Both the position numbers and the translations under genes were made by a program. Below, piece after piece: positions 10,825 to 27,002 of a stretch of 38,118 nucleotides of DNA; position 1 is the first letter of the stretch; each line of letters begins with the position of its first letter. The stretch spans positions 1 to 38,118 of the forward strand of contig JAKAHU010000002.1 of NCBI GenBank assembly GCA_021825385.1, written 5' to 3'. Origin of the DNA: Chloroflexota bacterium. GTDB taxonomy: Bacteria; Chloroflexota; Limnocylindria; Limnocylindrales; CSP1-4. The notes below the pieces were generated by a model, which was given only the letters and a program-made list of their open reading frames with translations, did not search any database and had not been told where the DNA came from.

Positions 10825-11496
10825 ATGTCGCCAATGCCCCGCTCCCGGATGTCGTCCTTGGCAGTCCTCGGCGCTCTTTCGCTGGCCGCGCTGGCGCTCA
10901 GCCATGAGTTGATCTACCTCATCGCGCACGGCGCGGGCGCCGGCTACACGGCTGCGATGCGGGAGGGTGGGCACGATCGCTACTGGACGAGCTTCGTCCT
11001 GATCGTGCTGGTTGTGACCGGTTGCCTGGGCGTCGTCGCGGCGGCGCAATGGCGGCGGCTCCGGAGACTCGCCGCCGACGTCCACGCCGGGACCGTGCGG
11101 GTCAATGACGGCAGTCTCGACCGATTCCTCGGGTTGCTCGGGCCGCTGTGGATCCGCGTGTCCGCCGGCACGATCGCCGCCTATGTGATCCAGGAGAACA
11201 TCGAAACGGCGAGCACGGGCGCCCCCCTACCAGGCGTCGGCGTCCTGGGCGGCGAGCACGCGATCGGCCTCCCGGTCCTGTTCGCGGTGAGCTTGGTGAT
11301 CGCGGTGGTCGGCGCGCTCGTCGGGTGGCGGCGGGAGGTCCTGCTCGCCCGGATCCGCGCAGCCGCAAGAGGGCGGCTCCGAGCCCCCGCCGCGACCCTG
11401 CGCCCGGCCCTGGCGGCCGCCAGGCTCGGCGGTCGTCGCGAGGGACGCCGTAACGGCGTCCGGGCGCCGCCACTCGGGCTGATCCGGCCAGCCTGA
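10825..11496 (+). CDS. Hypothetical membrane protein (about 4 TM), first gene of the copper/thiol operon
   Basis: Hydrophobic segments include LAVLGALSLAALAL, FVLIVLVVTGCLGVVAAA and LPVLFAVSLVIAVVGALV. No family recognised, and the Arg-rich tail could be a GC artefact. Confidence 0.5.
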   Translation: MSPMPRSRMSSLAVLGALSLAALALSHELIYLIAHGAGAGYTAAMREGGHDRYWTSFVLIVLVVTGCLGVVAAAQWRRLRRLAADVHAGTVRVNDGSLDRFLGLLGPLWIRVSAGTIAAYVIQENIETASTGAPLPGVGVLGGEHAIGLPVLFAVSLVIAVVGALVGWRREVLLARIRAAARGRLRAPAATLRPALAAARLGGRREGRRNGVRAPPLGLIRPA

Positions 11497-11523
11497 TCCA
11501 CCCCGTTCGGAACCGCCGGAGGG

Positions 11524-12156
11524 GTGGGCTCCCCTCGGAGGTGTCCCTTGACGCGCCCGTTCCTCCGCGCGCTCCTCTGCGCGGCACTCCTGTCGCTGAT
11601 CGCCAGTCCCGTCCTCGCCCACGCCGAGCTCGTGTCCGCCGCACCCGGCCTGGGCGATCAGGTCGAAGGCTCGCCGGCGAAGCTCGTCACGACGTTCAGC
11701 CAGAACCTCAACGTCTCGCGGACGTCGCTCGAGGTCCGCGACGCGTCGGGCTCAACCGTGGCCAAGGGCGGCGAGCTCGGCGCTAGTCCCCGAGAATTCC
11801 GCCTTGCCCTGCCCGAGCTCGCGCCCGGCAAATACCAGGTCCGCTGGACGTCGTTCTCGTCCGAGGACGGCGAGCTCGCTCGCGGCTCGTATACGTTTAC
11901 GGTCGTCGCGGCCCCGAGCCCGTCGCCATCACCCTCGCCGTCGCCGTTGCCGTCGCCGACCCCGACGCAATCGACCTCGCCGTCTGCTTCGCTGGCACCG
12001 ATCACGCCCGCCACACCATCACCGGCGCCGAGCGCGATACCTGCGCCCAGCGATGCGTCGGGCGGCGGTGGTGGCGCTGTGCTCATTCTGATCGGGGCCG
12101 CACTCGCGGTCGTGGGCGGGATCGGCATCTGGCTCGTCCGGCGACGAAGCACGTGA
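11524..12156 (+). CDS. copC: CopC-domain copper-binding protein with Pro/Ser-rich linker and C-terminal TM anchor
   Basis: The signal peptide ends ...SPVLA|HAELVSAAP, giving the N-terminal His of CopC. The CopC-like core is ...YQVRWTSFSSEDGELARGSYTFTV, followed by an (SP)n linker and AVLILIGAALAVVGGIGIWLV. An alternative TTG start at 11548 sits behind GGAGG. Confidence 0.85.
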   Translation: MGSPRRCPLTRPFLRALLCAALLSLIASPVLAHAELVSAAPGLGDQVEGSPAKLVTTFSQNLNVSRTSLEVRDASGSTVAKGGELGASPREFRLALPELAPGKYQVRWTSFSSEDGELARGSYTFTVVAAPSPSPSPSPSPLPSPTPTQSTSPSASLAPITPATPSPAPSAIPAPSDASGGGGGAVLILIGAALAVVGGIGIWLVRRRST

Positions 12157-13118
12157 GATTCGCACGAGTCACCCTCGCGGCGCTCGCGCTGGCGGTCCTC
12201 GCGCCAGCAGGGGCGCTCGCCCACGGCGCCGCGCAGGGACGGCCGCCAACCGACCCGCTTGGCATCGCGCTCGCCTGGCACCTCGACGTGTCGCTCATCC
12301 TCGGGCTCGCGGCGGCTGCGGCCGCCTATCTCTCGGCCGCCCGGTCGGTCGGCGCCGCCCATCGCGCGAACCCCTGGCCGCGGCGCCGGACCGTCGCGTA
12401 CCTCGCGGCACTGGCTGCCGTTGGCCTGGCCCTGCTCTCGCCGGTCGACACCCTGTCCGATGACCTCCTGAGCGTCCACATGGTCCAGCACCTCCTGCTC
12501 GTGTCGGTCGCCGCGCCCCTGTTCGCCCTGAGCGGGATCGGAACGCTCGCCCTGCGGGCGTCGAGCGCCGATGTCCGCGACCGGTACCTCCTGCCGTTCC
12601 TCCACAGCCGGCTCGTGAGCGCGCTGACGTTCCCGGTCGTCGGCGGGGTCGCCTTCGCCGGCGTCATGTGGGGCTCTCACTTCTCGACGCTCTACAACGC
12701 GGCCTTGCTCGACGGCAGGGTCCACGCCCTCGAGCACCTCTTGTACCTCGCCGCCGCCTGCCTGTTCTGGTGGCCGCTCCTCAGTCCCGACCCGCTCCGC
12801 TGGCGGATCCACCCGGGTGGCAAGCTCGTCGCGCTGCTCGCCCAGATGCCACCGATGAGCTTCCTCGCCGTCACGATCATCGGTGCTTCGGCGCCGCTCT
12901 ACGCCGCCTACCTCGGACGGACCGACGCGTTCGGCATCGACGCCCTGTCCGACCAGCGCATCGCCGGATCGCTGATGTGGCTCACCGGCGATCTCGCCTT
13001 CCTCATCCCGGGTGCCGCTCTCCTCCTCGCGCTGGTACGCCACGAGGAGGCCGAGGCGAAGCGGGTCGACGCCCGCCTCGACCGCGAGCGCCGAGCCCTG
13101 TCTCGAAAGGAGTCCTGA
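12153..13118 (+). CDS. Cytochrome c oxidase assembly factor CtaG-type (Caa3_CtaG family) membrane protein
   Basis: HMVQHLLLVSVAAPLFAL, FWWPLLSPDP and multiple TM segments match the family. The GTG start overlaps the CopC stop (GTGA). Confidence 0.75.
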   Translation: MRFARVTLAALALAVLAPAGALAHGAAQGRPPTDPLGIALAWHLDVSLILGLAAAAAAYLSAARSVGAAHRANPWPRRRTVAYLAALAAVGLALLSPVDTLSDDLLSVHMVQHLLLVSVAAPLFALSGIGTLALRASSADVRDRYLLPFLHSRLVSALTFPVVGGVAFAGVMWGSHFSTLYNAALLDGRVHALEHLLYLAAACLFWWPLLSPDPLRWRIHPGGKLVALLAQMPPMSFLAVTIIGASAPLYAAYLGRTDAFGIDALSDQRIAGSLMWLTGDLAFLIPGAALLLALVRHEEAEAKRVDARLDRERRALSRKES

Positions 13119-13120
13119 CG

Positions 13121-14044
13121 ATGCGCGCCCTCCCGGCCCTCCTCACCGCGACGCTCCTGCTCGCGGCCTGCTCCTCGGGCGGCGGCTCCCCGCCGGCATC
13201 GAGCGGCGCGGTGGCGAGTCCGTCGGCCGCCGCGTCCGGCGGGCCCGAGATCCTGCCGCTCCTCATCAATTCCGAGATCCTCAAGGGTCCGAACCGGTTC
13301 CTGTTCTCGCTGACCGACCGGGCGAACAAGCTCGTCGCCGCGCCCGACGTCAAGGTCCACCTGCTCTTCTACGACGTCGACACGGCCGAGAACACGGTCG
13401 TGTTCGAGGCGGACGCCCGGTTCCTGTGGGCGATCGAGGGCGAGCAGGGGCTGTACGTCGCCACCATCGATTTCCCCGACGCCGGGCGCTGGGGCACGAG
13501 GTTCGAGGCGACGTTCCCGAACGGCGCCGTCAAGGCCGTCCGCGCCGATTACGACGTGCGCGAGTCGGGCACGACGCCGGCGCTCGGGACCAAGGCGCCG
13601 TCGGTCGACACGCCGACCGCGGCCGACGTCGGCGGCGACCTCGCCAGGCTCTCGACGGACCAGTCGCCCGACCCGCGCTTCTACGAGCTCTCGATCGCCG
13701 ACGCGCTCGCCGCGGGGAAGCCGGTCGTCGTGACGTTCGCCACGCCGGCCTTCTGCCAGACCCGCCTGTGCGGCCCGACGCTCGAGACCGTCAAGCGGGT
13801 CGCCAAGGACTACCCGGCGATCACGTTCATCAACGTCGAGCCCTACAAGATGGCCTACAAGGACGGCAGCCTCCAGCCCGAACTCGACGCCCAGGGTCAG
13901 CTCCAGCCCGCCGACTGGACGAACGCCTGGGGCCTCCAGTCCGAGCCGTACACGTTCGTCGTGGCAGCCGACGGGACGGTTGCCGCGAAGTTCGAGGGCG
14001 TGCTCGGCGAGGACGAGCTGCGAGGCGCGCTCGATGCCCTATGA
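13121..14044 (+). CDS. Lipoprotein with an N-terminal beta-rich domain and a C-terminal thioredoxin-like fold (CX4C)
   Basis: MRALPALLTATLLLAAC is a lipobox and an AAAGGAG RBS precedes it. The C-terminal KPVVVTFATPAFCQTRLCGPTLE...FINVEPY is thioredoxin/AhpC-TSA-like. Confidence 0.7.
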   Translation: MRALPALLTATLLLAACSSGGGSPPASSGAVASPSAAASGGPEILPLLINSEILKGPNRFLFSLTDRANKLVAAPDVKVHLLFYDVDTAENTVVFEADARFLWAIEGEQGLYVATIDFPDAGRWGTRFEATFPNGAVKAVRADYDVRESGTTPALGTKAPSVDTPTAADVGGDLARLSTDQSPDPRFYELSIADALAAGKPVVVTFATPAFCQTRLCGPTLETVKRVAKDYPAITFINVEPYKMAYKDGSLQPELDAQGQLQPADWTNAWGLQSEPYTFVVAADGTVAAKFEGVLGEDELRGALDAL

Positions 14045-14367
14045 ACCCGTTCCGTTCGCTGTTCCTGTTCCTGGCCCTGGCGGTCGCACTCGCGGCCTGC
14101 GGCCCGGCTCCGCGGACCGTGGCGGGCTTCGTGGTCGACGTGAAGAGCACGAGCCTGACCGAGATCCAGAGCTTCACCCTGCGGACCCCGGACGGCCAGG
14201 AGCTCGTGTTCAAGGTCGGCGCGCTCGAGCTCGATGGGGGCGCCTTCCCGGCGGGTCACCTCCGCCAACACATGGCTCTCAACCAGGCGGTCGCGGTCGC
14301 CTACCGCGAGGAGGGCGGCGAGCGGGTCGCCTACCGGCTCGTCGATGCGACGTGGCTGCAGCCGTGA
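14041..14367 (+). CDS. Small lipoprotein, unknown function (108 aa)
   Basis: MNPFRSLFLFLALAVALAACG is a lipobox. There is an ATGA overlap with the upstream gene and a GTGA overlap with the downstream gene. Confidence 0.6.
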   Translation: MNPFRSLFLFLALAVALAACGPAPRTVAGFVVDVKSTSLTEIQSFTLRTPDGQELVFKVGALELDGGAFPAGHLRQHMALNQAVAVAYREEGGERVAYRLVDATWLQP

Positions 14368-15779
14368 GACGCCTGCCCGTCGCGCTCGCTGCCCTCGCGG
14401 CGCTCCTGGCGCTCCCGGGCCCCACCCTCGCCCACAACCTCGTCGGCCGGCTCGAGTCGCCGCTGCCACTGGCGGTCTACCTCGCCGGGGCGGCGATGGC
14501 GGTCGCACTCTCGTTCGCCTTCGTCATCCTGCGCGACGTCCGGGCACCGGCCGACCCACCGGCCCGGACGGTCACGGTCCCACGGCCGCTCGTCCTCGGC
14601 CTCCGGGCGATCGGCCTCGCGGGCTGGCTCTGGATCGTCGCCCAGACGATCGTCGGCGGCTCGTCCAACGCCGACGTCTCGAGCCTCTTCCTGTGGGTCT
14701 ACGGCTGGGTGGGCCTGGCCGCGGTGTCGGCGTTCGTCGGCCCGATCTGGAGCTGGCTCGACCCGTTCGCGACGCTGTTCGACCTCGGCGCCGCGGTTCT
14801 CCGCCGCCTCGACGTCGCGGCCTGGGAACCGGCACCGTATCCGGCAAGGCTGGGGGCCTGGCCGGCCGTCGCGGGCCTGGCGTTCGTCGCCTGGCTCGAG
14901 CTCGTCTACCGCGGCGGCGGGCTCGGCGTCGTCCTGCTCGGCTACACGGCCCTGACCCTCCTGGCCATGGCCAACTTCGGGCGGGACGCCTGGCGTGAGC
15001 GGGGCGAGACGTTCTCGGTCTGGTTTGGGACGCTCAACCGGCTCGCCCCGTTCGGGCCGCCGAGCGAGCCCGGGGGGCGCACGATCGAGCGGCGGCGGTT
15101 CGCCTCGGGGCTTCTCGCGCCGGGGTGGACGCGGCCCCACGTCGTCCTCGTGGCGATCGGCGCGGCCTCGATCCTGTACGACGGCCTGTCCCAGACACAG
15201 ATCTGGTTCGACCTGTTCGGGCTGCCCGGCCTTCCGCTCGCTACGCTCCTGCTGCTCGGCTTCCTTGGCCTCGTCGTCGGCCTCGCCCTCGCGGTCGGGC
15301 GCCTGGTTAGCCTCGCCGCGGTCGGGGCCGGCCTCGTGCCGATCGCGGTCGGCTACCTCGTCGCCCACTACCTGACCTACCTGCTCGGTGACGGCCAGCG
15401 GATCGTCGTCGCGATCTCCGATCCGCTCCAGCTCGGCTGGGACCTCTTCGGGACCGCCTTCTACGAGCCGGGCACGGACTGGATCCCGCCGGCGCTGCTG
15501 TGGACGGTCATGCTCGCGGCGGTCGTCGGCGGCCACGTCCTGGGCGCCTGGTCGGGCCATGTCGTCGCCGTCCGCGACGCACCGGCGCGATCCGACGTGC
15601 GCCTTCGCCAGGTGCCGCTCGCGGCGCTCATGGTCGGGCTCACCGCAACGACCCTGTGGTCGCTCGGCCAGACGATCGTCAAGGAGCCGGCCGAGATGCC
15701 GGGGGCCGTCTCGACGTCGGTTGACGTCCTCGCCGCGATATCCGTCGGCGAGGAACCCGGCCCTCGGGGCACGCCATGA
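14364..15779 (+). CDS. Polytopic membrane protein, unknown function (471 aa, roughly 10 TM)
   Basis: The GTG at 14364 is in frame with track ORF 13980..15779. The signal-like N-terminus ends ...GPTLA|HNLVG. Many TM segments are present and no family was recognised. Confidence 0.65.
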   Translation: MRRLPVALAALAALLALPGPTLAHNLVGRLESPLPLAVYLAGAAMAVALSFAFVILRDVRAPADPPARTVTVPRPLVLGLRAIGLAGWLWIVAQTIVGGSSNADVSSLFLWVYGWVGLAAVSAFVGPIWSWLDPFATLFDLGAAVLRRLDVAAWEPAPYPARLGAWPAVAGLAFVAWLELVYRGGGLGVVLLGYTALTLLAMANFGRDAWRERGETFSVWFGTLNRLAPFGPPSEPGGRTIERRRFASGLLAPGWTRPHVVLVAIGAASILYDGLSQTQIWFDLFGLPGLPLATLLLLGFLGLVVGLALAVGRLVSLAAVGAGLVPIAVGYLVAHYLTYLLGDGQRIVVAISDPLQLGWDLFGTAFYEPGTDWIPPALLWTVMLAAVVGGHVLGAWSGHVVAVRDAPARSDVRLRQVPLAALMVGLTATTLWSLGQTIVKEPAEMPGAVSTSVDVLAAISVGEEPGPRGTP

Positions 15780-16336
15780 TCGGAGTCGAGACGGTCGCCG
15801 TCTTCTACTCGATCCTGGCCCTCGTCGCGAACGCCGCCGTCGTCGCGGTCGTTGTTCTCGTTGCGGCGGGCCGCCGCGAACGACTGCGCGACGGGCTCGG
15901 CGGGAGCGTGCTGCCAGCCGCGTTCGTCGTCGCGACGCTCGCGACGCTGGGCAGCCTGTACTTCTCGGAGGTCGCCCACTTCGAGCCGTGCCGGCTGTGC
16001 TGGTACCAGCGGATCGCGATGTACCCGCTCGTCATCATCCTCGGAATCGCCGCCTGGCGGGGCGACGCGCGCGTCCGGCGGTACGTCGTCCCGCTCGCCG
16101 CCATCGGTGCCCTGATCGCCGGCTACCACTACGCGCTCGAGTGGCTGCCGTGGCTGGACTCGGGCGTCTGCTCGGCGTCCACGCCGTGCACGCTCGTCTG
16201 GTTCCGCGAGTTCGGCTTCGTCAGCCTGCCGTACCTCGCGCTGTCGGCGTTCCTTTTCATCCTCGCGCTGGTGGCGCTCGCCCCTGTCCCGGCGTCGGAC
16301 GATCGCGAGGATCCGCTCCCTCGGAGGCCATCGTGA
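15776..16336 (+). CDS. Disulfide bond formation protein, DsbB/BdbC family
   Basis: Contains the CRLCWYQR first-loop CxxC, a second Cys pair (CSASTPC) and 4 TM segments. There is an ATGA overlap upstream. Confidence 0.8.
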
Positions 16337-17094
16337 CGAAACCCCGACGATGGCGAGCCCAGCCCGGGCCCGCCAGCACCCCCGGTCGCGCCACGGCCGG
16401 TCCGACCCAGCCAAGTCCGGTCATGCCGGTGCGCGGCCGCCGGTCGCCAGATCGACCAGTCCCGGGACGGTTCTCCGGCGCCGTGCTCGCCGTCGGTGCC
16501 GTGGTCGTCGCTGCTGCCGCGGTCATCGCCGTCCTCCTGACCCAGTCGCCAGGCGCGCCAGCAGGTTCGGCAGCGCCGACTGTGGCCTCGCCATCGACGG
16601 CTGCCACGCAGCCGGCGGTCGGCGCCGCCTTGCCGGCCTTCGTCGCCACGGAGAACGACCCCGCCGTCGGGCGGCCGATCCCCGAGGTTGATGGCGCCTC
16701 CTTCGACGGCAGTTCCGTCAGCATCGCCGCGGACAGCCGCCCGAAGGTCGTCCTGTTCCTCGCCCACTGGTGCCCCCACTGCCAGCGCGAGGTGCCCGTG
16801 GTCAAGGCCTGGCTCGACCGCGGAGGCCTGCCGGCCGGGGTCGACCTCGTGTCGGTGGCCACGGCGATCGACCCGAACCGGCCGAACTATCCCCCCGACG
16901 CGTGGCTGTCACGCGAAGGCTGGCAGGCGCCGGTGCTGGTCGATGGCGACGGCTCGATCGCGACCCGGTACGGCCTGAGTGCGTTCCCCTACTGGGTGGC
17001 GGTCAACGCGGATGGCACCGTGGCGAGGCGGTTGACCGGCGAGCTGAGGCCCGACCAGCTCGATGACCTCGTGGCCTCGGTGGCAGGGTCATGA
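16333..17094 (+). CDS. Membrane-anchored TlpA/ResA-like thiol-disulfide oxidoreductase
   Basis: A single TM anchor (AVLAVGAVVVAAAAVIAVLL) precedes VVLFLAHWCPHCQREVP (WCPHC). The GTG at 16333 overlaps the DsbB stop; an alternative ATG lies at 16423. Confidence 0.8.
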   Translation: MTKPRRWRAQPGPASTPGRATAGPTQPSPVMPVRGRRSPDRPVPGRFSGAVLAVGAVVVAAAAVIAVLLTQSPGAPAGSAAPTVASPSTAATQPAVGAALPAFVATENDPAVGRPIPEVDGASFDGSSVSIAADSRPKVVLFLAHWCPHCQREVPVVKAWLDRGGLPAGVDLVSVATAIDPNRPNYPPDAWLSREGWQAPVLVDGDGSIATRYGLSAFPYWVAVNADGTVARRLTGELRPDQLDDLVASVAGS

Positions 17095-17184
17095 GGAGAC
17101 CCTGCGTGGCCGTGGCCGCCCGTCGGCGCTCGCGGCCGATCCTAACCGAGCCGCCGCTGGCGGCGATCGCCCGGGTGGTCTCCG

Positions 17185-17892
17185 ATGGCTAAGCGCCGCC
17201 GAAGCTCGCGCCCGGCCCCGGTGATGCCGGCCGCCGCGCGCCCGCGACGCCGGGCGCCGGAGCCCAAGCGGCGACGGCTGCCGTCGCTGCGGGTCGTCCT
17301 CGTCGGTCTCGCCGCGGTCGGGGTGGTCGGCGTGGTCGGGCTCGCGTTCATCGGCAGCGCGACCGCCCGCGACTACTCGTGCGCGGAGCTGCTGACCGCC
17401 CCGCCCGACGCGTCGGTCGCCGACGGGTTCGCGACCAAATCGCTCGGCCAAGCCCACGTCGGGGTGGGCACGAAGATCCGCTACGGCTTCTGCCCGCCGA
17501 CATCGGGCGGCCACTACAACGCCGCCGGTGCCGGGCCGCTCCGGCCGGGCTTCTACGGGCCCGACGCTGACGCCGGCCCGGGCGGCTGGGTCCACAACCT
17601 CGAGCACGGCTACGTCGTCGCCCTCTACCGCTGCGCCGAGGGGTCGTGCCCGTCGGACGCCGAGCTCGCGACTCTCCGCGCGTTCGCGGCGAACGGCCCG
17701 CCGACCCAGTCGGCGGCCGCCTGCGGCTATCGCTCGAAGGTCCTCGTCGCCCGCTTCGACGAGCTGTCCACGCCATATGCGCTACTCGCCTGGGACCGGG
17801 CGCTGCTCCTCGACGCCTTCGACGAGGCGACGGCCCGCGACTTCGCGAGCCGCTCGATCGAGGCAACCGCGCCGGAACCGAATGCATGTTGA
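17185..17892 (+). CDS. DUF3105-domain protein with N-terminal TM anchor
   Basis: YGFCPPTSGGHY...GGWVHNLEHGYVVALY matches my memory of the DUF3105 signature. The Arg-rich N-terminus is followed by one TM segment. Confidence 0.7.
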   Translation: MAKRRRSSRPAPVMPAAARPRRRAPEPKRRRLPSLRVVLVGLAAVGVVGVVGLAFIGSATARDYSCAELLTAPPDASVADGFATKSLGQAHVGVGTKIRYGFCPPTSGGHYNAAGAGPLRPGFYGPDADAGPGGWVHNLEHGYVVALYRCAEGSCPSDAELATLRAFAANGPPTQSAAACGYRSKVLVARFDELSTPYALLAWDRALLLDAFDEATARDFASRSIEATAPEPNAC

Positions 17893-17930
17893 CCCGAGAA
17901 CACCGTCGAAATCCCGAACTGGAGGCATCG

Positions 17931-19094
17931 ATGACGACTGGAACCCCTGATCCGCCCGCCCTCAGCCCGATTGGCCGTCGCGCGTTCCTCCGTGGCGCGG
18001 CGGTTGCCGGTGGTGGCGCCGTCGCAGCAACGCTCGCCGCCTGCGTTCCCGCAGGCGGGCCTGTGTGGACATTCGGCCCAGCTTCCTTGCCGGCGCCGGG
18101 CGGCTCGCCCGCCGTACCGAGCCCGTCGCCCGCCGCGATCTCTCATGCGGCGACACCCGCCGCCTCGACCGCTGCCACGACCGACCCCAACGCGGCGGCG
18201 ATGAACGAGGAGCACGATCGATCGGCGGAGACCCGCGTCAAGCGGTTTCTCGCGGGCGAGTGGGAGAAGGCGGGGCCGTACGGCAACCAGCCCCTCGAGC
18301 CGACGATCGACGGCGACTTCAAGGTCTTCGAGCTCGAGTGCACCGCGTTCGAGTGGCGGATCGACGCCGAGCTTCCGCCCGTGAACGCGCTCGGCTACAA
18401 CGGCACGTGGCCCGGGCCAGTCCTGCGCGTGACCGAGGGCGACAAGGTCCGGGCGATCGTCAGGAACTCGATGGCCGAGTCGACATCGGTTCACTTCCAC
18501 GGGCAGGCGCTCGTGAACAAGATGGACGGTGTCCCGTTCGTCACCCAGCCGCCAATCAAGCCGGGCGAGACGTTCGTCTACGAGTTCGTGGCCAAGCCGT
18601 ACGGCTCGCACATGTACCACAGCCACCACAACGCGGCTGATCAGGTCGGCCGGGGCCTGCTCGGCGCGTTCCTCGTCGACCCGAAGGATGCGAGGCTCCG
18701 CCACGACCGACGCTACGGGATCAGCCAGGACATCGTCTGGGTGAGCAACGACACGCTCGGCGGTTTCACGATCAACGGCCGGGGCTTTCCCGCGACGAAG
18801 CCGCTCACGGCAAAGCGGGGTGAGCGGATCCTGGTCCGATTCATGAACGAGGGCCAGATGATACACCCCTGGCACCTCCACGGGATGCCGATGCGGGTCG
18901 TCGCCCGTGACGGCTACTACCTGGGCTCGGCCGAGTTCACGTGCGACACGCTCGGGGTCAACCCCGGCGAGCGCTACGACGTCATCATCGACTGCGACAA
19001 CCCGGGAGCATGGGCCTTCCACTGCCACATCCTCAGTCACGCCGAGGGTCCGCAGGGGATGTTCGGGATGGTGACGGCCCTGATCGTCCAATGA
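17931..19094 (+). CDS. Two-domain multicopper oxidase, Tat-exported lipoprotein
   Basis: The start sits behind GGAGG. A Tat motif (GRRAFLRG) and lipobox (TLAAC) are present. The four Cu-ligand motifs are HFHG, HSHH, HPWHLHG and HCHILSHAEGPQGM. Length fits two cupredoxin domains. Confidence 0.85.
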   Translation: MTTGTPDPPALSPIGRRAFLRGAAVAGGGAVAATLAACVPAGGPVWTFGPASLPAPGGSPAVPSPSPAAISHAATPAASTAATTDPNAAAMNEEHDRSAETRVKRFLAGEWEKAGPYGNQPLEPTIDGDFKVFELECTAFEWRIDAELPPVNALGYNGTWPGPVLRVTEGDKVRAIVRNSMAESTSVHFHGQALVNKMDGVPFVTQPPIKPGETFVYEFVAKPYGSHMYHSHHNAADQVGRGLLGAFLVDPKDARLRHDRRYGISQDIVWVSNDTLGGFTINGRGFPATKPLTAKRGERILVRFMNEGQMIHPWHLHGMPMRVVARDGYYLGSAEFTCDTLGVNPGERYDVIIDCDNPGAWAFHCHILSHAEGPQGMFGMVTALIVQ

Positions 19095-19195
19095 CGGCCG
19101 CTGTCGACGTGCGGCAGACTTTGGATGGTTCATATACGATGGTGGAGCAATGATTCAACAATGGCTTCTCCGCCGGTTCGAGGACCCGTCGGAGG

Positions 19196-20170
19196 GTGCG
19201 GAGCGGCCTCGCGGCCACCCGGCGGGAACCTAGCGCAGTGGCATCTGACGCACCGGCGGCCGCGGGCGCACGGCCAGCGCCCGCCGGACACAGTCACTCG
19301 GCCGCCGGCGCAGGCGCCGGCCGCCTCCGGATCGTGCTGGCGCTCACCGGCGGCTACATGGCCATCGAGGTCGCGGGCGGCATCCTGACCGGCAGCCTGG
19401 CGCTGATCGCCGATGCCGGGCACATGCTCACCGACGTTGCGGGCGTATCGATGGCGCTCCTCGCCATCCGCTTCGCGGCGCGCCCGGCGAACGACGGCAA
19501 GTCGTATGGCTACTACCGGCTCGAGATCCTCGCCGCGATCGCGAACGGGATCCTCCTGTTCGGCGTCGCGGCCTACATCCTCTACGAGGCCTACCGGCGG
19601 TTCCTGGAGCCACCCGAGATCCTCGGGCTGCCGATGCTCGCGGTCGCGACCGTCGGCCTGCTGGTCAACCTCGTCTCGGCACGCCTCCTGCTCGCCGGCC
19701 AGAAGTCGAGCCTCAACCTCCGCGGGGCCTTCTATGAGGTTGTTGGGGACCTCCTGGGCTCGGTCGCAGTCATCGTCGCCGGCGTCGTCATCGCGCTCAC
19801 CGGCTGGAACATCGTCGACCCGATCGCCTCGGTCGTCATCGGCCTGTTCATCCTGCCCCGAACCTGGACGCTCATCCGCGACGCGGTCGACGTTCTCCTC
19901 GAGGCGACCCCGAAAGGCGTCGACATGGCCGAGGTTCGCCGGCACATCACCGAGACCGAGGGTGTCAAGGATGCCCACGACCTCCACGCCTGGACGATCA
20001 CGAGCGGGATGAACGTCCTCTCCGCGCACATCGTCCTCGCCGACGGGGCGCGAGCCGACGAGGTGCTCGATCGGCTGTGCGGCTGCCTCTCCGATGACTT
20101 CGACATCGAGCACAGCACGTTCCAGCTGGAGCCGACCGACCGGCGCACGGTCGAGAAGGCGACCCACTGA
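19196..20170 (+). CDS. Cation diffusion facilitator (CzcD/ZitB-like) efflux transporter
   Basis: ALIADAGHMLTDV, YGYYRLEILAA and LHAWTITSG are CDF hallmarks, with an N-terminal HSHS. The start may instead be the GTG at 19238. Confidence 0.85.
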   Translation: MRSGLAATRREPSAVASDAPAAAGARPAPAGHSHSAAGAGAGRLRIVLALTGGYMAIEVAGGILTGSLALIADAGHMLTDVAGVSMALLAIRFAARPANDGKSYGYYRLEILAAIANGILLFGVAAYILYEAYRRFLEPPEILGLPMLAVATVGLLVNLVSARLLLAGQKSSLNLRGAFYEVVGDLLGSVAVIVAGVVIALTGWNIVDPIASVVIGLFILPRTWTLIRDAVDVLLEATPKGVDMAEVRRHITETEGVKDAHDLHAWTITSGMNVLSAHIVLADGARADEVLDRLCGCLSDDFDIEHSTFQLEPTDRRTVEKATH

Positions 20171-20198
20171 GTCTCAAGCACGCGAAAGGAGAACCCGA

Positions 20199-20567
20199 AT
20201 GACCGACCTGAACCAGACGGTGCAGAGCACCCCGACGAGCCTGACCTGCCCCAAGTGCGCCGGCGCGATGCGGGCCTACGAGCGGAACGGGATCACGATC
20301 GACCAGTGCACCGAGTGCCGGGGAATCTTCCTCGACCGCGGCGAGCTCGAGCGGCTCATCGAGGCCGAGGACGTGCACTACAGCGGCCAGACGGCGCCCG
20401 GATCGGAGCAGGCGGGCGGATACCCCGACCCCCGCGACTACCCGCCAGATCCCGGCTATCGCGGCGACCGCGGCGGGAAGCACGGCGGCGGGAAGCACGG
20501 GGGCTACGGCGGGTACCAGCGCCGGCGCCGTGGCGGCTTCCTCGGCGACCTGCTCGACTTCGGCTGA
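20199..20567 (+). CDS. TFIIB-type zinc-ribbon protein with a Gly/His/Tyr-rich tail
   Basis: CPKC...(17)...CTECRGIFLDRGELERLI is followed by a low-complexity GGKHGGGKHGGYGGY tail. The start sits behind AAAGGAG. A 15-nt tandem duplication lies at 20472-20501. Confidence 0.7.
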   Translation: MTDLNQTVQSTPTSLTCPKCAGAMRAYERNGITIDQCTECRGIFLDRGELERLIEAEDVHYSGQTAPGSEQAGGYPDPRDYPPDPGYRGDRGGKHGGGKHGGYGGYQRRRRGGFLGDLLDFG

Positions 20568-20603
20568 TCGAAGGACATCGAGACCGTGCGAAAGGAGGCC
20601 ACC

Positions 20604-21125
20604 ATGTCCGTCGAACCTGGTGCGGGGGGTGGAGCATTCCTCAGTCGGCGTCAGCTCCTGCGCCTGTCCCTCTTCGCCGGTCTTGGCGCGCTCGCCGCCG
20701 CCTGCGCGGGACGAAGCGAGCCGGGCTGGACCTACGGCCCGACCCTCGCGCCATCCACCGGCTCGCCCGAGCCTTCATCCGCCCCGAGCGGGGCGGCCAC
20801 GCCTGCGGCAGCGAGCGCCTCGCCCTCGGCCGGCGGGTCGGGGGTGGTGATCAAGATCGTCGCCCAGAACATCAAGTTCGATCTTGCCGAGTTCAGCGTC
20901 CCCGCCGACACCCCGTTCCAGATCGTGTTCGACAACCAGGACGCGGGGATCCCGCACAACGTGGCGATCTACCAGGGGCAGGCCGGTGGTCCGACCCTCT
21001 TCAAGGGCGAGATCTTCAACGGCGTCAAGACGGTTACCTATGACGTCCCTGGCCTCCCCGCCGGCAACCACTACTTCCAGTGCGACGTGCACCCGACAAT
21101 GAACGGCACGGTCCGCGCCGGGTGA
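20604..21125 (+). CDS. Cupredoxin (type-1 copper, amicyanin-like ligand spacing), Tat signal and possible lipobox
   Basis: The start sits behind AAGGAGG. SRRQLLR is a Tat motif and LAAAC a possible lipobox. Ligand candidates are IPHNV plus YFQCDVHPTMNG (C-x2-H-x2-M). Confidence 0.8.
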   Translation: MSVEPGAGGGAFLSRRQLLRLSLFAGLGALAAACAGRSEPGWTYGPTLAPSTGSPEPSSAPSGAATPAAASASPSAGGSGVVIKIVAQNIKFDLAEFSVPADTPFQIVFDNQDAGIPHNVAIYQGQAGGPTLFKGEIFNGVKTVTYDVPGLPAGNHYFQCDVHPTMNGTVRAG

Positions 21126-21216
21126 CGAACGCAGGGCACCGTCGAGTCACCGATCGGTCACGGTCGCGGGCGCCCAGAGACGCTGGGAGCGTGCGTCCTC
21201 GAGACATGCCTCAAGT

Positions 21217-23157
21217 ATGGCCGCCCGGACTTCGCCGTCCCTCGCCATGAGCGAGCACGACGACCACACTCCGGGACACGATGACGGCAGCGACGCGCCA
21301 TTCTGGCGGCTTCGCAACGTCCAGCTCGCGTTCGGCGCCGGTCTAGTCCTAGCCGCCGGGCTCCTCGTCGAGCGCCTGGCGGCCGCGCCCGGTGTCGCCG
21401 CGGCCGCCTACGTCGCCGCGGTCGTCGTCGGTGGCGCCACCTTCGTCCCCGAGTCAGTGCGCGCCCTCGCCCGCCGCGAGGTCGGCGTCGGCACACTGAT
21501 GACGATCGTGGCTGCCGGGGCCGTGCTGCTCGGCGAGTTCGGCGAGGCGGCCAGTCTCGCGTTCCTGTTCTCGATCGCCGAGGCGCTCGAAGCGTACTCG
21601 CTGACGCAGGCGCGGCGCGGCCTCCGGAGCCTGCTCGCGCTCGTGCCCCCGACGGTGACCGTCCTCCATGACGGCGGCACGCGGAAGGTCCCGGCCGGCG
21701 AGGTTCGGGTGGGCGACCGGATCGAGCTTCGACCTGGCGAGCGATTGGCGACCGACGGGATCGTGCGCGCGGGTCGATCGGCGCTCGACGTCTCGGCGAT
21801 CACTGGCGAATCCATGCGCGTGGAGGTCGAACCGGGCGATCGCGTGTTCGCGGGTTCGGTGAACGGCGGCGGGGTGCTCGAGGTCGAGGCGACTGCCACG
21901 GCCGAGGACAACTCACTCGCGCGGATCGTCCACATCGTCGAGGAGGCCCAGGAGCGCAAGGGGGGGGCGCAGCGGACCGCGGACCGGATCGCCCGCCCGC
22001 TCGTCCCCGGGATCATGGTCGTGGCCGCGGTGGCGGCCGTCGGCGGCAGCCTCCTCGACGACCCTGCCACGTGGCTGCCCCGGTCGCTCGTCATTCTCGT
22101 CGCCGCCGCGCCATGCGCGTTCGCGATCGCGGTCCCGGTGACCGTCGTGGCGGCGATCGGCGCGGCGAGCCGGGCGGGCGTCCTGGTGAAAGGCGGAGCG
22201 GCCCTCGAGATGCTCGGTGCGGCGCGGATCGTGGCTCTGGACAAGACGGGCACGATCACCCGCAACCGGCCCGAGGTGGTGGCGGTCGAAGCCGTCGACG
22301 GCGTCGATCGCGACACCCTGCTCTCGCTCGCGGCGGCGCTCGAGGCCCGCAGCGAGCACCCGCTCGCGGCGGCGATCCTCGCCGCCACACCCACCGTGCC
22401 GCCCGCAACCGACGTCGAGGCGGTCGCCGGACACGGGCTGACCGGGTCGGTCGGCGGCGATTGGGTGCGACTCGGCCGTCCGGGGTTCATCGCCCCTGAC
22501 GGGTTGACGCCCGTGCTCGATGCCGTCCAAGAGGCCGGCGCAACCGCCGTGCTCGTCGAGCGGGCCGGGAGGACAGTCGGCCTGGTGGCGGTCCGGGACG
22601 AACTCCGGCCGGAGGCCCCGGAGGCCGTGCGGGAGCTCCATGGGCTGGGCCTCGCGAGCGTCGTGCTGACCGGCGACAACCGCCGGACCGCCGAGGCGCT
22701 CGCCGCCCGGGCCGGGGTCGGCCGGGTCGAGGCGGAGCTGCTTCCCGAGGACAAGGCGCGCATCGTGGAGCGGCTGCGAATGGAGCGGCCGGTGGCAATG
22801 GTTGGCGACGGGATCAACGACGCCCCGGCGCTTGCGAGCGCCGACGTGGGCATCGCGATGGGCGCGCTGGGCACGGACGTCGCGATCGAGACTGCGGATG
22901 TGGTCCTCATGGGGGAGGATCTCAGGCACCTGCCGGCATCCTTTCGGCACGCCCGCCGGGCGCTCGGCATCATGCGCCAGAACCTCGTCCTGTCGGGCGC
23001 CATCCTCGTCGTGCTCGTGCCCCTGGCCGCCCTCGGCATCCTCGGCCTCGCGGCCGTGGTCGCCATCCACGAGCTGGCCGAGGTCCTCGTGATCGCCAAC
23101 GGGCTGCGAGCCGGGCGCGGCCACGCCCTGACGCTCGCGCCCGCCGTCGCCCCGTAG
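21217..23157 (+). CDS. P1B-type heavy-metal-translocating ATPase (no HMA domain, APC motif)
   Basis: ITGES, DKTGTIT, SEHPLA and GDGINDAPAL are present. The membrane motif is AAAPCAFAIAVP and the last TM carries IHELAEVLV. The N-terminus is His/Asp-rich (HDDHTPGHDD). Confidence 0.9.
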   Translation: MAARTSPSLAMSEHDDHTPGHDDGSDAPFWRLRNVQLAFGAGLVLAAGLLVERLAAAPGVAAAAYVAAVVVGGATFVPESVRALARREVGVGTLMTIVAAGAVLLGEFGEAASLAFLFSIAEALEAYSLTQARRGLRSLLALVPPTVTVLHDGGTRKVPAGEVRVGDRIELRPGERLATDGIVRAGRSALDVSAITGESMRVEVEPGDRVFAGSVNGGGVLEVEATATAEDNSLARIVHIVEEAQERKGGAQRTADRIARPLVPGIMVVAAVAAVGGSLLDDPATWLPRSLVILVAAAPCAFAIAVPVTVVAAIGAASRAGVLVKGGAALEMLGAARIVALDKTGTITRNRPEVVAVEAVDGVDRDTLLSLAAALEARSEHPLAAAILAATPTVPPATDVEAVAGHGLTGSVGGDWVRLGRPGFIAPDGLTPVLDAVQEAGATAVLVERAGRTVGLVAVRDELRPEAPEAVRELHGLGLASVVLTGDNRRTAEALAARAGVGRVEAELLPEDKARIVERLRMERPVAMVGDGINDAPALASADVGIAMGALGTDVAIETADVVLMGEDLRHLPASFRHARRALGIMRQNLVLSGAILVVLVPLAALGILGLAAVVAIHELAEVLVIANGLRAGRGHALTLAPAVAP

Positions 23158-23173
23158 GAGGACGGAACGCGAG

Positions 23174-23614
23174 GTGGCGAGTGCACCCTGGCATACTGCG
23201 GGCATGATCCGCGCGTATGGCGCCGCCCTGTCCGAAGACCGCTGCGAGACGGAGTGCATCCACCCCGAGCAGGTCCGCCCGCTGCTCGGCCGCACGCTGT
23301 CGGGCCAGGCCGCCCTGCGGGTCGGCGACCTGTTCGGACTGCTTGCGGATCCGACCCGGGCTCGCATCCTCCACGCGCTCACGCTCATCGACGAGCTCTG
23401 CGTGTGCGACCTCGCCCTTCTCCTCGGGCTCTCGGTCTCGGGCTTGAGCCACCAGCTCCGGCTGCTCCGGGACCGGGACGCGGTCGCGCGCCGGAAGTCC
23501 GGACGGATCGTCTACTACCGCCTGGCGGACGAGCATGTCCGGCGTCTGCTGACCGATGCGCTCGTCCACGTCGGCGAGGGAGTCGCGGCCGACGTCACGG
23601 ACCAGACCGCGTGA
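23174..23614 (+). CDS. ArsR/SmtB-family metalloregulator with alpha3 (CVC) and alpha5 (DxHx10HxxE) type sites
   Basis: LLADPTRARILHAL...ELCVCDLA...LSHQLRLLRD...YYRLADEHVRRLLTDALVHVGE, plus an N-terminal CETEC. It lies 16 nt downstream of the ATPase. Confidence 0.85.
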   Translation: MASAPWHTAGMIRAYGAALSEDRCETECIHPEQVRPLLGRTLSGQAALRVGDLFGLLADPTRARILHALTLIDELCVCDLALLLGLSVSGLSHQLRLLRDRDAVARRKSGRIVYYRLADEHVRRLLTDALVHVGEGVAADVTDQTA

Positions 23615-23706
23615 CGCACCCGCCGGCCGCCAGCAGTTCCGAAGCTGCCAACCATGCCTGAACTGCCCCGCCCGCTGTGGCCGTGACGTCGATGGGCCAT
23701 GTGTGA

Positions 23707-24076
23707 ACCCGTCGCTCGGCCGGACCTCCTTACCGCGCGCTGGCAGATGGCGCTCTTGCTCTGCCGAGCCTCGGCATCCACGACTCTACCCGCGACCAGG
23801 CCGACCCGGCCCGGATGTGGGCGACGCTCGGGACGCCGCCGGCCCATCCGATGACTGGCCTTGCCGCCACGCCCGATGGTTGGACCGTCTACGCGGGGGC
23901 GCCCGACGGGCCTGTTCCGCAGCGACGGCGGTGGCCAGAGCTGGTCGCCGACCGGCTTCCGCGGGGGTGCGTTCGCAATCGCGACGACGACCGATGGAAG
24001 GACTGTTGCGATGGTAGGCCGAGAGACCGAGTTCTTCCGCTCGGAGGATCGGGGCACATCCTGGCCGGCTCCGTGA
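23707..24076 (+). pseudogene. C-terminal fragment of a BNR/Asp-box repeat (sialidase-like beta-propeller) protein with one frameshift
   Basis: Two Asp-box-like motifs (FRSDGGGQSW, FRSEDRGTSW) occur in ORF 23861..24076. The upstream continuation ...ATPDGWTVYAGAPDG lies in a different frame (the 23815 frame). No start codon and no N-terminal two thirds are present. Confidence 0.45.
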
Positions 24077-25627: not shown

Positions 25628-25864
25628 TCGCGCACCTCCTTGATGGTCGGATCGTGCCGACCATACGCCAGCCGACGTTTCAGCAGCCAGTGAAGGAGGG
25701 CCTGCCAGCCCGTACAGCCCGGCCTCAGGGGCACCAACGAGGGTTGGGACAGGTAGCGCGTCGGTCCCGGCTTCGGTCATGTCTCGTGGTCCTCGCTGGC
25801 TGAGCGTGGGCAGCGCGGTGGCGGCACCCGCGTCGGGTCTGCTATTGTTTCATGAATTGCTGAA

Positions 25865-26422
25865 ATGAGGACGAATCCGCGCATGCCCGAGCCTCCGCGT
25901 GACCTGCGTACCCGGGTGGTCGAACCGATCCGCGCCGTCCAGCTCGTCGCCGGGATCTTCGTGGTTGGCATTGTCGTGATCGGCGACACGCTCGCCGACA
26001 CCGCCATCCGCGGGGCGGCTGAGCCGTCGATCGCCGTCGTCGGCGACTTGCTGCGGCTCACGCCGTCGGCGAACGAGGGGATTGCGTTCGGCCTCCTGAG
26101 TGATGTTGGCCCGGCGGTCGTCATCCTCCTCACGGGGCTCGCGCTCGCCGTCGCACTCGCCTCTGTTCGGCGGGTCCGCGGGTTCCTGTTCCGAGCGGCG
26201 ATCTGGCTCCTGCTCGGGGGCGGCCTGGCGAACCTGATCGAGCGAGTCGCCCATGGCCGTGTCCTCGACTACGTGGATCTCGGACTGGGGAACGCACGAT
26301 GGCCGACGTTCAACGTCGCCGATGTCGCCGTCAGCCTCGCGGTCGTCGCTGCGACCGCGGGCATCGCGGTGGAGCGACTGCGGCGCACCGTCGGCGGCGC
26401 GTCGGGCACGGGGCGGCCGTGA
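25865..26422 (+). CDS. lspA: Lipoprotein signal peptidase (signal peptidase II)
   Basis: Motifs NEGIAFGLL, GGGLANLIERV..GRVLDY and FNVADVAVSL with 4 TM segments. The start may be 25883, behind GAGGA. Confidence 0.8.
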   Translation: MRTNPRMPEPPRDLRTRVVEPIRAVQLVAGIFVVGIVVIGDTLADTAIRGAAEPSIAVVGDLLRLTPSANEGIAFGLLSDVGPAVVILLTGLALAVALASVRRVRGFLFRAAIWLLLGGGLANLIERVAHGRVLDYVDLGLGNARWPTFNVADVAVSLAVVAATAGIAVERLRRTVGGASGTGRP

Positions 26423-26844: not shown

Positions 26845-27002
26845 CCGCCAGCCGCGGCGCCGGCCGTCGACCGCGCTCGAGATCCCGCGCGCGGCGAGAT
26901 CGCGTCGAGGAGTTCGAGCCAGCGAAGCGGATTCTGGGCGATGACCGCCTCGAGGGCCGTCCAAACTCCACCTACGGACCGGCCCGCACATCCAGGAGGC
27001 AC

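Follow-up and report, generated by a model that had tools for sequence, protein, structure and literature searches.

A copper-related gene cluster of Limnocylindria appears to be built on CopC and a cysteine-free membrane protein that may stand in for CopD

What holds together ten closely packed genes for envelope proteins that combine copper chaperones, disulfide-bond machinery and a multicopper oxidase (MCO)? The question is raised by positions 10825-19094 of contig JAKAHU010000002.1 from a Chloroflexota bacterium (class Limnocylindria, CSP1-4; assembly GCA_021825385.1), which was analysed here as a stretch of 38,118 nucleotides (the window). The ten genes are called g1 to g10 in their order, and the loci compared with the window carry L-numbers such as L001 or L178. 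A first-pass annotation of the DNA had proposed that the genes form a dedicated extracytoplasmic assembly line for the MCO or another cuproprotein. The reading reached here is that they would form a CopC-fed copper relay or uptake module around the membrane protein g6, with extra genes accreted inside a metal-efflux island, and it is held at slightly better than even odds (about 0.55). To our knowledge, copper import and delivery in bacteria is much less well understood than export, and CopCD/YcnJ, CcoA and a few others are the systems known.

The conservation of the cluster was studied by a profile search for g6 homologues in representative genomes, which gave 239 relatives. The best 80 loci, nearly all labelled Chloroflexota, were scored for gene content by tblastn of all window proteins over a range of 10 kb. 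The complete ten-gene order was confined to the window's own population, in which the layout is identical on 17 public contigs (for example in GCA_027348195.1). Six loci at 65-90% identity (L001-L005 and L011; 72-84% nucleotide identity over 4.8 kb) carried a seven-gene form in the order g1-CopC-CtaG-g4-(g5)-g6-DUF3105, followed by ArsR and CDF genes. Three more (L009, L010 and L012) had CopC-g6-DUF3105 with g6 directly before DUF3105, and nearly all others had CopC-g6 alone, g3-g5 being absent from most. Homologues of the DsbB protein, the thioredoxin and the MCO were found within 10 kb in none of the 80 loci.

When CopC was located with an HMM of CopC domains, it lay on the same strand no more than 1.3 kb upstream of g6 in 69 of the 77 testable loci and in the same cluster as g6 in 75 of the 77; six of the eight exceptions were expanded clusters with CopC further upstream. 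The usual setting of CopC-g6 in most species is a housekeeping one, between two M16 peptidase genes and carB-carA, and some genomes hold both short and expanded versions (three loci in the metagenome-assembled genome CAZOHT01, two in JBBEBL01). The conserved core of these Limnocylindria loci is CopC followed by g6, and g6 is the most conserved member of the cluster. The first-pass annotation had named conservation of gene order in relatives as the touchstone of its ten-gene unit; that order is not conserved outside the population, and it is the smaller core that recurs. Its wider description of an extracytoplasmic, copper-related unit stood, with conservation extending to a part of it, the seven-gene form in six relatives.

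The g6 gene (14364-15779, + strand) encodes 471 residues with about ten transmembrane helices, no cysteine and a signal peptide ending TLA|H. A profile search of 1.84 billion representatives recovered 3,632 clusters (at 50% identity) at E<=1e-3 and 2,170 at E<=1e-10. Ten distant members, the longest fusions being chosen, were scanned with Pfam, and nothing was detected except the fused domains; one member carries a C-terminal Cu,Zn-superoxide dismutase (Sod_Cu, 6.6e-34). Among 49 diverse members, A23/H24 after the signal peptide, H391 and H399 were at least 90% conserved and H335 was invariant, out of five histidines in g6 in total. The signal peptide of the family is followed by AHGFGxRYDLPxPL, in which the histidine is the predicted mature N terminus, and further signatures are PIAxxYxxAHY and SDPxGxGWDLFG. 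The AlphaFold model of g6 contained ten helices (pLDDT 87.6, pTM 0.86). Its best TM-score against the PDB was 0.16, which is no proof of an absolutely new fold, as the PDB probably holds no CopD, CcoG or NapH structures.

CopD was tried as an identity for g6 and rejected: PF05425 gave no match at E<=0.01 in g6 or in the 10 distant members, and the hhalign probability was 0.1% against YebZ and 0.14% against YebZ plus PcoD. A tblastn search with YebZ against 1.95 Mb of fetched loci was likewise negative. Descent from a common ancestor with g3 was also rejected, as the signal peptide plus AH was all that aligned (probability 3.5%). The earlier statement that the cluster contains no CopD was right as far as PF05425 is concerned, and a better reading of it is that CopD has been replaced by another membrane partner, g6.

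The likely origin of g6 was seen through an intermediate. The g6 profile matched a 502-residue paralogue (L175:758-2266) at E 2.5e-38 over 390 columns, and this paralogue has two CX3CP motifs plus a CxxCxxCxxxCP ferredoxin motif, reaches 25.5 bits with Fer4_5 (cut-off 22) and is similar to E. coli YccM (7e-10) and to NapH (7e-8). By this transitive link g6, which has no cysteine and stays below the Fer4_5 threshold itself, would be related to the CcoG/YccM/NapH (Fer4_5) membrane ferredoxins. The two CX3CP positions are degenerate in g6, reading WSWLDP (129-134) and WRERGET (210-216). The [4Fe-4S] ferredoxin motifs are absent from the window g6 and from the Limnocylindria members, which also have no cysteine. 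In 16 of 94 full-length representatives of the family, a six-cysteine insert (CxxCxxxC..CxxCxxC) occupies the ferredoxin position, in the TM5-TM6 loop. The gradation within the family from CcoG/NapH-like through six-cysteine-insert to cysteine-free members looks like a stepwise loss of iron-sulfur (Fe-S) clusters. CcoG is a membrane cupric reductase required for assembly of the cbb3 oxidase, and YccM is a homologue of it (PMC7558416).

The g6 protein would consist of a Fer4_5-type core and a family-specific C-terminal five-helix module. Its N terminus would be outside because the signal peptide is cleaved, and its C terminus would be outside because a periplasmic-type SodC is fused there; the presumed outside/outside topology is consistent with basic residues in the predicted cytoplasmic loops. 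The degenerate CX3CP sites would then be on the cytoplasmic face, and H335, H391 and H399 would lie within the last helices. In NapH the CX3CP motifs are on the cytoplasmic face.

Two further fusions of 890-920 aa were seen in the family (L176:5659-8331 and L175:3446-6208; P0154 and P0177), in which a g6 domain is joined to a C-terminal region of about 400 aa that has no Pfam match. Upstream of them is a conserved, unannotated secreted protein of 383-400 aa.

The relationship between the copper genes and the disulfide machinery was clarified by the DNA of the relatives. g7 (15776-16336, + strand) encodes a DsbB/BdbC-type disulfide oxidoreductase (PF02600 54 bits; NF002849 132.4 against a cut-off of 124) with the pairs Cys72/75 and Cys132/138. 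g8 (16333-17094, + strand) encodes a membrane-anchored thioredoxin of the TlpA/ResA/DsbE fold with the active site WCPHC (Redoxin 48.8 bits, AhpC-TSA 34.5), whose PDB relatives are PilB-Trx, Mpt53, ResA, StoA and DsbF. Window positions 10869-15700 are colinear with L004 at 84% identity, and 17145-17898 continues gap-free in L004 (blastn). Because L004 is contiguous across 15701-17144, the 1.44-kb segment between is an insertion into the 3' end of g6. The segment comprises a new g6 tail, supplying the final ~25 codons, the dsbB gene and the thioredoxin gene, and a short CCGAG..GCCG repeat, imperfectly matched, stands at its flanks. It is missing from the six relatives, in which the flanking DNA is contiguous, and from all 80 g6 loci. 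The original g6 end (..TCCGATGGCTAA) persists as a relic at 17145-17196 on the + strand, as judged by junction alignment and synteny, and the relatives have an 8-nt overlap (ATGGCTGA) between the stop of g6 and the start of g9.

DsbB homologues of ~73% identity pair with the same thioredoxin and are free-standing in unrelated neighbourhoods; HWCPHCQREVPVV is kept in these stand-alone pairs. Because such pairs are free-standing elsewhere, the inserted one appears to have been copied from the system by which this lineage generally oxidises envelope thiols, and the earlier idea that disulfide machinery is natively wired into a copper unit was not supported by the comparison. Neither CcdA nor DsbD was found in the cluster. 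CPHC is the dipeptide motif of E. coli DsbA. As it always goes together with DsbB and has the CPHC motif known from DsbA, g8 is most likely the oxidising partner of g7, an oxidase role being likelier than a reductive TlpA role. The pair resembles BdbC-BdbD, DsbB-DsbA and mycobacterial DsbE/DsbF in that a dsbB-type gene adjoins and overlaps that of a secreted thioredoxin-fold partner. It differs from DsbB-DsbA and BdbC-BdbD in that the partner has a TlpA/ResA fold, not that of DsbA, and in that the pair here is a copy inside a copper operon.

A second history was read from the MCO gene, g10 (17931-19094, + strand), whose product has a Tat signal (RRAFL), a lipobox (LAAC) and the two domains Cu-oxidase_3 and Cu-oxidase_2. 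Its start is most likely ATG 17931, with GGAGG upstream, giving 387 aa. All four Cu-ligand motifs are present (HFHG, HSHH, HPWHLHG and HCHILSHAEGPQGM), with the T1 motif HCHxxxHxxxxM in domain 2. The nearest PDB structures are two laccases of the two-domain type, 2zwn and 3g5w, and the best NCBIfam match is copper_res_A (1.9e-44), under its cut-off. With its two cupredoxin domains and four Cu-ligand motifs, g10 is like the SLAC-type small laccases and the N. europaea blue copper oxidase, and its Tat signal plus lipobox is like that of M. tuberculosis MmcO. The comparison brought out no specific difference from these enzymes: g10 is an ordinary two-domain MCO, and its link to the cluster is lineage-specific.

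The sister lineage L178/L179 has 88% nucleotide identity over 7.1 kb and possesses g1-g9 including the insertion. Of the MCO gene L178 retains a remnant, the first ~89 nt, within a 43-codon stub encoding the Tat signal. On account of this stub the MCO was ancestral to the window and L178 lineages and was deleted in L178 with the other genes kept. No MCO or MCO remnant was found in the six seven-gene relatives. Conversely, 80 metagenomic loci of MCO relatives (56-74% identity) were inspected, 33 of which had more than 2 kb of sequence upstream of the MCO gene; no g1-g9 homologue was found nearby, and a conserved context for the MCO was sought among the 80 and rejected.

The window and L178 also differ in how far their parts have diverged. 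In a comparison of 10882-23764, g1-g6 and the CDF gene had a synonymous divergence of 0.2-0.55, against 0.02-0.13 in g7-g9 and in the cupredoxin and ATPase genes; the two lineages also differ in the DNA to the left of the cluster. This mosaic points to recent recombination of the right-hand part, or to mobility of the island. All genes are under purifying selection (dN/dS 0.13-0.35).

The CopC-domain protein g2 (11524-12156, + strand; PF04234 59.7 bits against a cut-off of 23.3) has a signal peptide ending VLA|H, whose cleavage is predicted to leave a His at the N terminus, a linker rich in Pro and Ser and, by transmembrane scan, a membrane anchor at the C terminus; the mature protein contains no Met. 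The VLA|H cleavage context was kept in 44 of 45 CopC sequences (alignment of 45 homologues), and the D-x-H position varies among the CopC relatives of g2, being E, D or H. The score against the NCBIfam equivalog copper_CopC was 49, below the cut-off of 95. The next gene, g3 (12153-13118, + strand), encodes a polytopic Caa3_CtaG-family membrane protein whose signal peptide ends ALA|H, so that the signal peptides of g2, g3 and g6 all end in A|H. It reached 206.8 bits with PF09678 (cut-off 27.7) and missed the equivalog cut-off of TIGR02737 (54 against 279).

The g4 product (13121-14044, + strand) is a lipoprotein with lipobox Cys17, in which a beta-sandwich at the N terminus precedes a thioredoxin-like domain. 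All sequences of the homologue alignment had the motif FATPAFCxTRxCGP (C212/C217), and the AlphaFold model (pLDDT 82.7) gave CrdA, CopC, PmoD and FetP as its best Foldseek matches. Of the earlier label 'thioredoxin-fold lipoprotein', the lipoprotein part was borne out; the thioredoxin fold is weakly supported, by a faint Thioredoxin_2 match, PDB hits at E ~0.5 and a beta-alpha-beta arrangement in the AlphaFold model. Two identities for g4 were rejected: Sco/SenC, as there was no PF02630 match, C-x4-C-G-P in place of CxxxC and no invariant His, and YtkA, for which sequence searches were negative.

g1 (10825-11496, + strand, with an alternative start at ATG 10849) encodes a membrane protein of ~215-223 aa with the conserved motifs SHELIY, GGHDRYW, QENIE, GGEH and NGVRAPP; its homologues are first in the cluster in L001-L005 and L011 and lie 5' of CopC in L030, L051, L062 and L078 (dN/dS 0.22-0.30). 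g5 (14041-14367, + strand) encodes a variable 108-aa lipoprotein of no family, with tblastn matches in L001-L004, L011 and L015 and a dN/dS of 0.13-0.28; by DNA synteny it is missing from L005. g1, g4, g5 and g6 were without any Pfam or NCBIfam match.

The last member of the seven-gene form, g9 (17185-17892, + strand), is a membrane-anchored DUF3105 protein (PF11303 61 bits) that directly follows g6 in the relatives. An alignment of 9 homologues showed six cysteines in g9 and conservation of two motifs, SGxHY and WVHNLEHGY. The L005 protein (L005:11367-12071) lacks both C150 and C155, and this joint loss suggests that they may form a disulfide. A search of the literature on DUF3105, or on copper in Limnocylindria, found nothing relevant.

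The partners of g6 were also followed to distant loci. In L184 an operon encodes a cupredoxin-like protein, a g6 homologue (33% identity), a Zn-ribbon protein, a g4 homologue (30% identity, FCxxxxCGP retained), DUF3105 (153 bits) and a DUF305 protein. DUF305 is a domain of the copper-binding resistance protein CopM (PMC4335983). Five independent distant loci have a secreted or anchored protein of 119-154 aa directly upstream of the g6 homologue (L082:7553-7972, L084:361-750, L176:5292-5651, L184:4540-5004 and L185:6630-7004), with an HLHGY[DG] motif and often a second His-rich stretch; similarity to Cupredoxin_1 was 3e-7 at best and mostly under Pfam thresholds. In Limnocylindria, CopC occupies the place of this small cupredoxin upstream of g6. 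A Cu-binding beta-sandwich protein, g6, g4 and DUF3105 are together a deeply conserved set, recognisable to ~30% identity.

The layout of the locus was checked in detail. The window has a GC content of 70%, and all ten open reading frames (ORFs) are on the + strand with a coding-type GC3 of 0.82-0.95 in every one. Overlaps of 4 nt were found at GTGA 12153-12156, ATGA 14041-14044, GTGA 14364-14367, ATGA 15776-15779 and GTGA 16333-16336; the g3/g4 junction reads TGA-CG-ATG, a 2-nt gap, and the remaining gaps are 27 nt (g1/g2), 90 nt (g8/g9) and 38 nt (g9/g10). The junction sequences thus agree at every position with the ten same-strand ORFs, five overlaps and one 2-nt gap claimed at first pass. 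Profile searches likewise agreed with its family assignments (CopC, Caa3_CtaG, DsbB, a TlpA/ResA-type WCPHC thioredoxin, DUF3105 and a two-domain Tat-lipoprotein MCO), the Pfam matches above cut-off being CopC at 59.7 bits, Caa3_CtaG at 206.8, DsbB at 54, DUF3105 at 61, Redoxin/AhpC-TSA, and Cu-oxidase_3 with Cu-oxidase_2. Overlaps of 4 nt are the usual operon architecture at 70% GC and no statistical anomaly, and the ten genes are probably one compact, co-transcribed unit.

The fifth overlap depends on the g8 start, which is disputed among public gene calls (170, 203 or 253 aa). The N terminus from GTG 16333 (VTKPRR..) agrees with stand-alone g8 homologues, one of which likewise overlaps dsbB by 4 nt, and this start is supported by the comparison. 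In GCA_027348195.1 (L165:6378-7343), g3 is annotated as two ORFs of 95 and 212 aa, and in L178 there is a frameshift in the N-terminal tail of g8; both are probably assembly errors in low-complexity GC-rich stretches.

The unit is followed by an AT-richer intergenic region (19095-19195) ahead of a CDF gene, which sequence comparison showed to be common to L178 and L005 and which is probably the right boundary. In L001, L003 and L004 a perfect palindrome, AATACTTGAGC-N4-GCTCAAGTATT, stands ahead of the ArsR-CDF genes, and a related AT-richer element (..GAGCAATGAT..CAA..) stands ahead of the CDF gene in the window, L178 and L005. A clean inverted repeat was not found at 19095-19195 in the window itself, and no convincing inverted repeat or operator was seen in three window intergenic regions.

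Beyond this boundary lies the metal-efflux island, at the head of which the unit stands. It encodes a CDF exporter (19196-20170, + strand, by Pfam), a Zn-ribbon protein (20094-20567, + strand, by Pfam), a Tat-lipoprotein cupredoxin (20586-21125, + strand) with a lipobox and the full type-1 Cu ligand set His, Cys, His and Met, a P1B-type ATPase (21217-23157, + strand), an ArsR/SmtB regulator (23132-23614, + strand, by Pfam), the lipoprotein signal peptidase lspA (25856-26422), a second P1B-type ATPase with a DUF302 N-terminal domain (26945-29344) and, further downstream, a second CDF protein. Both ATPases have APC, neither CPC nor SPC, in the metal-binding helix. The claim that the usual copper partners are absent was accurate inside the ten genes and as regards a P1B-1 ATPase; it did not extend to the next 10 kb, with its CDF gene, cupredoxin, two P1B-type ATPases and ArsR-type regulators. 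In every case ArsR-CDF or other metal-efflux genes come after the expanded module.

The cupredoxin is a second lipoprotein cuproprotein of the island and is conserved in L002, L005, L006 and L178, and lspA shares the island with g4, g5, the MCO and the cupredoxin, all four of them predicted to be lipoproteins. In the housekeeping loci among L014-L080 (for example L045:7858-8967), a same-strand gene often comes before CopC-g6 whose 369-aa product has an ArsR-type HTH at its C terminus and is a candidate for regulating the pair; a small 117-aa ORF also often precedes CopC-g6.

How such a module might work can be put together on the observed anatomy of the cluster, its conservation, its history of insertion and deletion, the remote homology of g6 and the switching of its partners. 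That g6 handles copper, which way the metal is passed and what g4, g9 and the DsbB pair contribute are inferred. Cu(II) would be captured outside the cell by the membrane-anchored CopC with its N-terminal His and handed to g6, which would receive it at its own N-terminal His. The membrane His of g6 would pass the copper to carboxylate sites on the cytoplasmic side or, as the SodC fusion suggests, to periplasmic clients. In descending from its ferredoxin-like ancestors g6 would have lost all Cys and gained the outer N-terminal His, the three His of the last helices and carboxylate or amide residues at the former CX3CP sites. It would thus move copper across or along the membrane, which is CopD's job elsewhere, and supply the cell and envelope copper proteins. 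Standing partners or downstream handlers may be the g4 protein with its Cys-x4-Cys, the CtaG-like g3 and the DUF3105 protein g9, whose translation is coupled to that of g6 in the relatives; g1 and g5 are additions in this lineage. As the DsbB-thioredoxin insertion is just upstream of the Cys-rich DUF3105 gene, the pair may serve six-Cys DUF3105 and g4. The MCO would be a dispensable client, a passenger or a detoxifier.

Precedents exist for parts of this scheme. In B. subtilis and C. glutamicum, proteins with a CopC domain and an N-terminal His bind Cu(II) and pass it to a membrane partner, an uptake that supports oxidases: YcnJ of B. subtilis requires both CopC His24 and a CopD His, and the CopC of C. 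glutamicum is anchored at its C terminus and has CtiP as its partner (PMC13344008, PMC9145763). The CopC-g6 pair is like the CopC-CopD pairs (P. syringae CopCD, E. coli YobA-YebZ, PcoC-PcoD) in that a CopC with an N-terminal His is encoded just upstream of a polytopic protein with suspect membrane His. It is like YcnJ, a CopC-CopD-YtkA fusion, in that an extra periplasmic copper domain can be attached to the membrane partner (YtkA in YcnJ, SodC in one g6 member). Unlike CopD, g6 has no PF05425, an hhalign probability of 0.1% and ~10 helices against 8. Helices 2-5 in its N-terminal half would be homologous to those of CcoG/FixG, YccM, NapH and NosR via the Fe-S-bearing paralogue, with both CX3CP positions after equivalent helices on the predicted cytoplasmic face, and copper trafficking for oxidase assembly is a feature of CcoG. 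Unlike CcoG-type proteins, g6 has no Cys, [4Fe-4S] motifs or FixG_C Ig domain, and it has in addition a signal peptide followed by the N-terminal His, one more helix at the start and the C-terminal five-helix module (AHY, SDPxGxGWDLFG, GHxxxxxxxH). What would be new here is CopC-dependent copper handling on a CcoG-like scaffold that replaces CopD.

Several observations weigh against this reading. The sole promoter-like site found in a scan for promoters and terminators was upstream of an unrelated HTH gene, and terminator-like matches fell inside genes; no copper-responsive regulator was identified in the window. In the 45-homologue alignment g2 has DGE where the canonical ligand set, as in CopC-CopD pairs, is DGH, and in the homologue alignment of g4 no His, Met or Cys of the beta-sandwich is invariant. 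Genes for heme-copper oxidase subunits were found neither in the 38-kb window nor in the flanks of the related loci examined. The kinship of g6 to CcoG would run through one intermediate paralogue and in-register motif positions: the direct comparison of the g6 profile with YccM/NapH gave a probability of 0.4-1.2%, which is not significant, with the motifs aligned in register. Nor is CcoG chemistry transferable to g6, because g6 has lost the defining Cys and Fe-S motifs of its only characterised relatives. Distant g6 homologues stand in varied contexts, and a handful of distant loci was inspected.

Four other explanations were weighed. The proposal that the ten genes fold and metallate the MCO g10, or one specific cuproprotein, draws on the tight co-oriented packing, with the MCO last and with its own Shine-Dalgarno sequence, on the need of a Tat lipoprotein for four coppers, and on the presence of the MCO before the window and L178 lineages parted. 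It is hard to square with L178/L179, where the MCO body is gone and g1-g9 are intact under selection, with six relatives that have the module and neither MCO nor remnant, with 0/80 MCO-relative loci having a g1-g9 homologue, and with the carAB and M16 peptidase context of CopC-g6 in most species; a dedicated line for the MCO is accordingly judged very improbable. A Cop/Pco-type resistance operon, in which the MCO would be CopA/PcoA, CopC would be PcoC, g6 would act for PcoD/CopD and the rest would be accessories of periplasmic detoxification under copper stress, is rather doubtful. The MCO does have copper_res_A as its best NCBIfam match, below cut-off, pcoABCD also groups an MCO with PcoC and PcoD, the expanded module always precedes ArsR-CDF or other metal-efflux genes and is an extra paralogue beside the housekeeping CopC-g6, and the L184 operon has a CopM-like DUF305 protein. 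However, g6 is not CopD (no PF05425; hhalign 0.14% against YebZ plus PcoD), and as compared with a cop/pco operon the MCO and CopC are present and CopD, CopB/PcoB, CopRS/PcoRS and a Cu(I) ATPase are not, both ATPases being APC and not CPC; the MCO is dispensable in the sister lineage, and the CtaG-family and Sco-like components indicate supply, not detoxification (PMC9145763). As to whether the expanded module serves supply or tolerance, its ArsR-CDF association and extra-paralogue status lean towards stress, and the CtaG and Sco-like components lean towards supply.

The same components could belong to a Gram-positive-type kit for maturation of a heme-copper oxidase, with CopC and a membrane importer, g3 inserting Cu, g4 as a Sco-like protein and g4/g5 resembling CtaK/YtkA. 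The Gram-positive oxidase copper set (Caa3_CtaG/CtiP, Sco YpmQ, CtaK and C. glutamicum CopC Cg1884) shares with the cluster a CtaG-family protein, a C-anchored CopC, small lipoproteins and one lipoprotein of thioredoxin fold that has a Cys pair. The strong Caa3_CtaG match of g3, the likeness of the g4 beta-sandwich to copper-chaperone folds and a nearby lspA fit the kit, as does the C-terminal anchor of g2, found also in the C. glutamicum CopC whose partner is CtiP (PMC9145763); B. subtilis uses YcnJ (CopC-CopD-YtkA), CtaG, Sco and CtaK, the last two being lipoproteins (PMC13344008, PMC9145763). Yet the oxidase genes are missing nearby, as noted, and so is PCuAC, g4 is not Sco by sequence (no PF02630, Cys-x4-Cys, no conserved His), g3 is far under the Bacillus CtaG equivalog cut-off, and g3-g5 are missing from most CopC-g6 loci, all of which makes the kit an unlikely answer. 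Finally, g6 might still be a redox protein, a reductase of cupric or other metal ions or an electron conduit like CcoG, NapH or NosR, with His-ligated cofactors and reducing the Cu(II) of CopC or the cupredoxin. Its homology to Fer4_5 membrane ferredoxins, the six-Cys insert at the NapH/YccM ferredoxin site in 16/94 representatives, three conserved His in transmembrane helices and the cupric reductase activity of CcoG (PMC7558416) favour this, but g6 and the Limnocylindria members have no Cys, three membrane His among five in total are too few for two bis-His hemes, Pfam and NCBIfam revealed no heme, flavin or quinone motif, and CopC, with which it is paired, is a tight Cu(II) binder familiar from import systems (PMC13344008). 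A redox role is considered decidedly unlikely.

The CopC-fed relay or uptake module around g6 is the reading preferred here, and a wider claim can be attached to it tentatively, at somewhat less than even odds. The g6-type proteins may be an unrecognised, widespread class of membrane copper-handling proteins derived from CcoG/NapH ferredoxins, in which Fe-S and thiolates were swapped for an N-terminal His, membrane His and carboxylates. Paired with CopC in Limnocylindria, or with a small HLHGYD cupredoxin elsewhere, they would be one half of a two-part system for copper import or relay that takes the place of CopD, and together with the g4-type lipoprotein and DUF3105 they would make up a deeply conserved module feeding envelope cuproenzymes.

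For the reading of gene clusters, the locus illustrates that tight overlaps are no proof of an ancient functional unit: two of the three functional blocks distinguished by the first-pass annotation are recent add-ons, the DsbB-thioredoxin block having been inserted and the MCO having already been lost in the sister lineage. For the biology of the Limnocylindria, a CopC partner other than CopD in essentially every sampled genome, and in thousands of protein clusters elsewhere, would, if true, be a new route of copper uptake or relay, and a redox scaffold of the CcoG/NapH type would have been repurposed for it. The unannotated families of g6, the g4 lipoprotein and DUF3105 are given a testable context, which for DUF3105 would, if true, be the first functional one.

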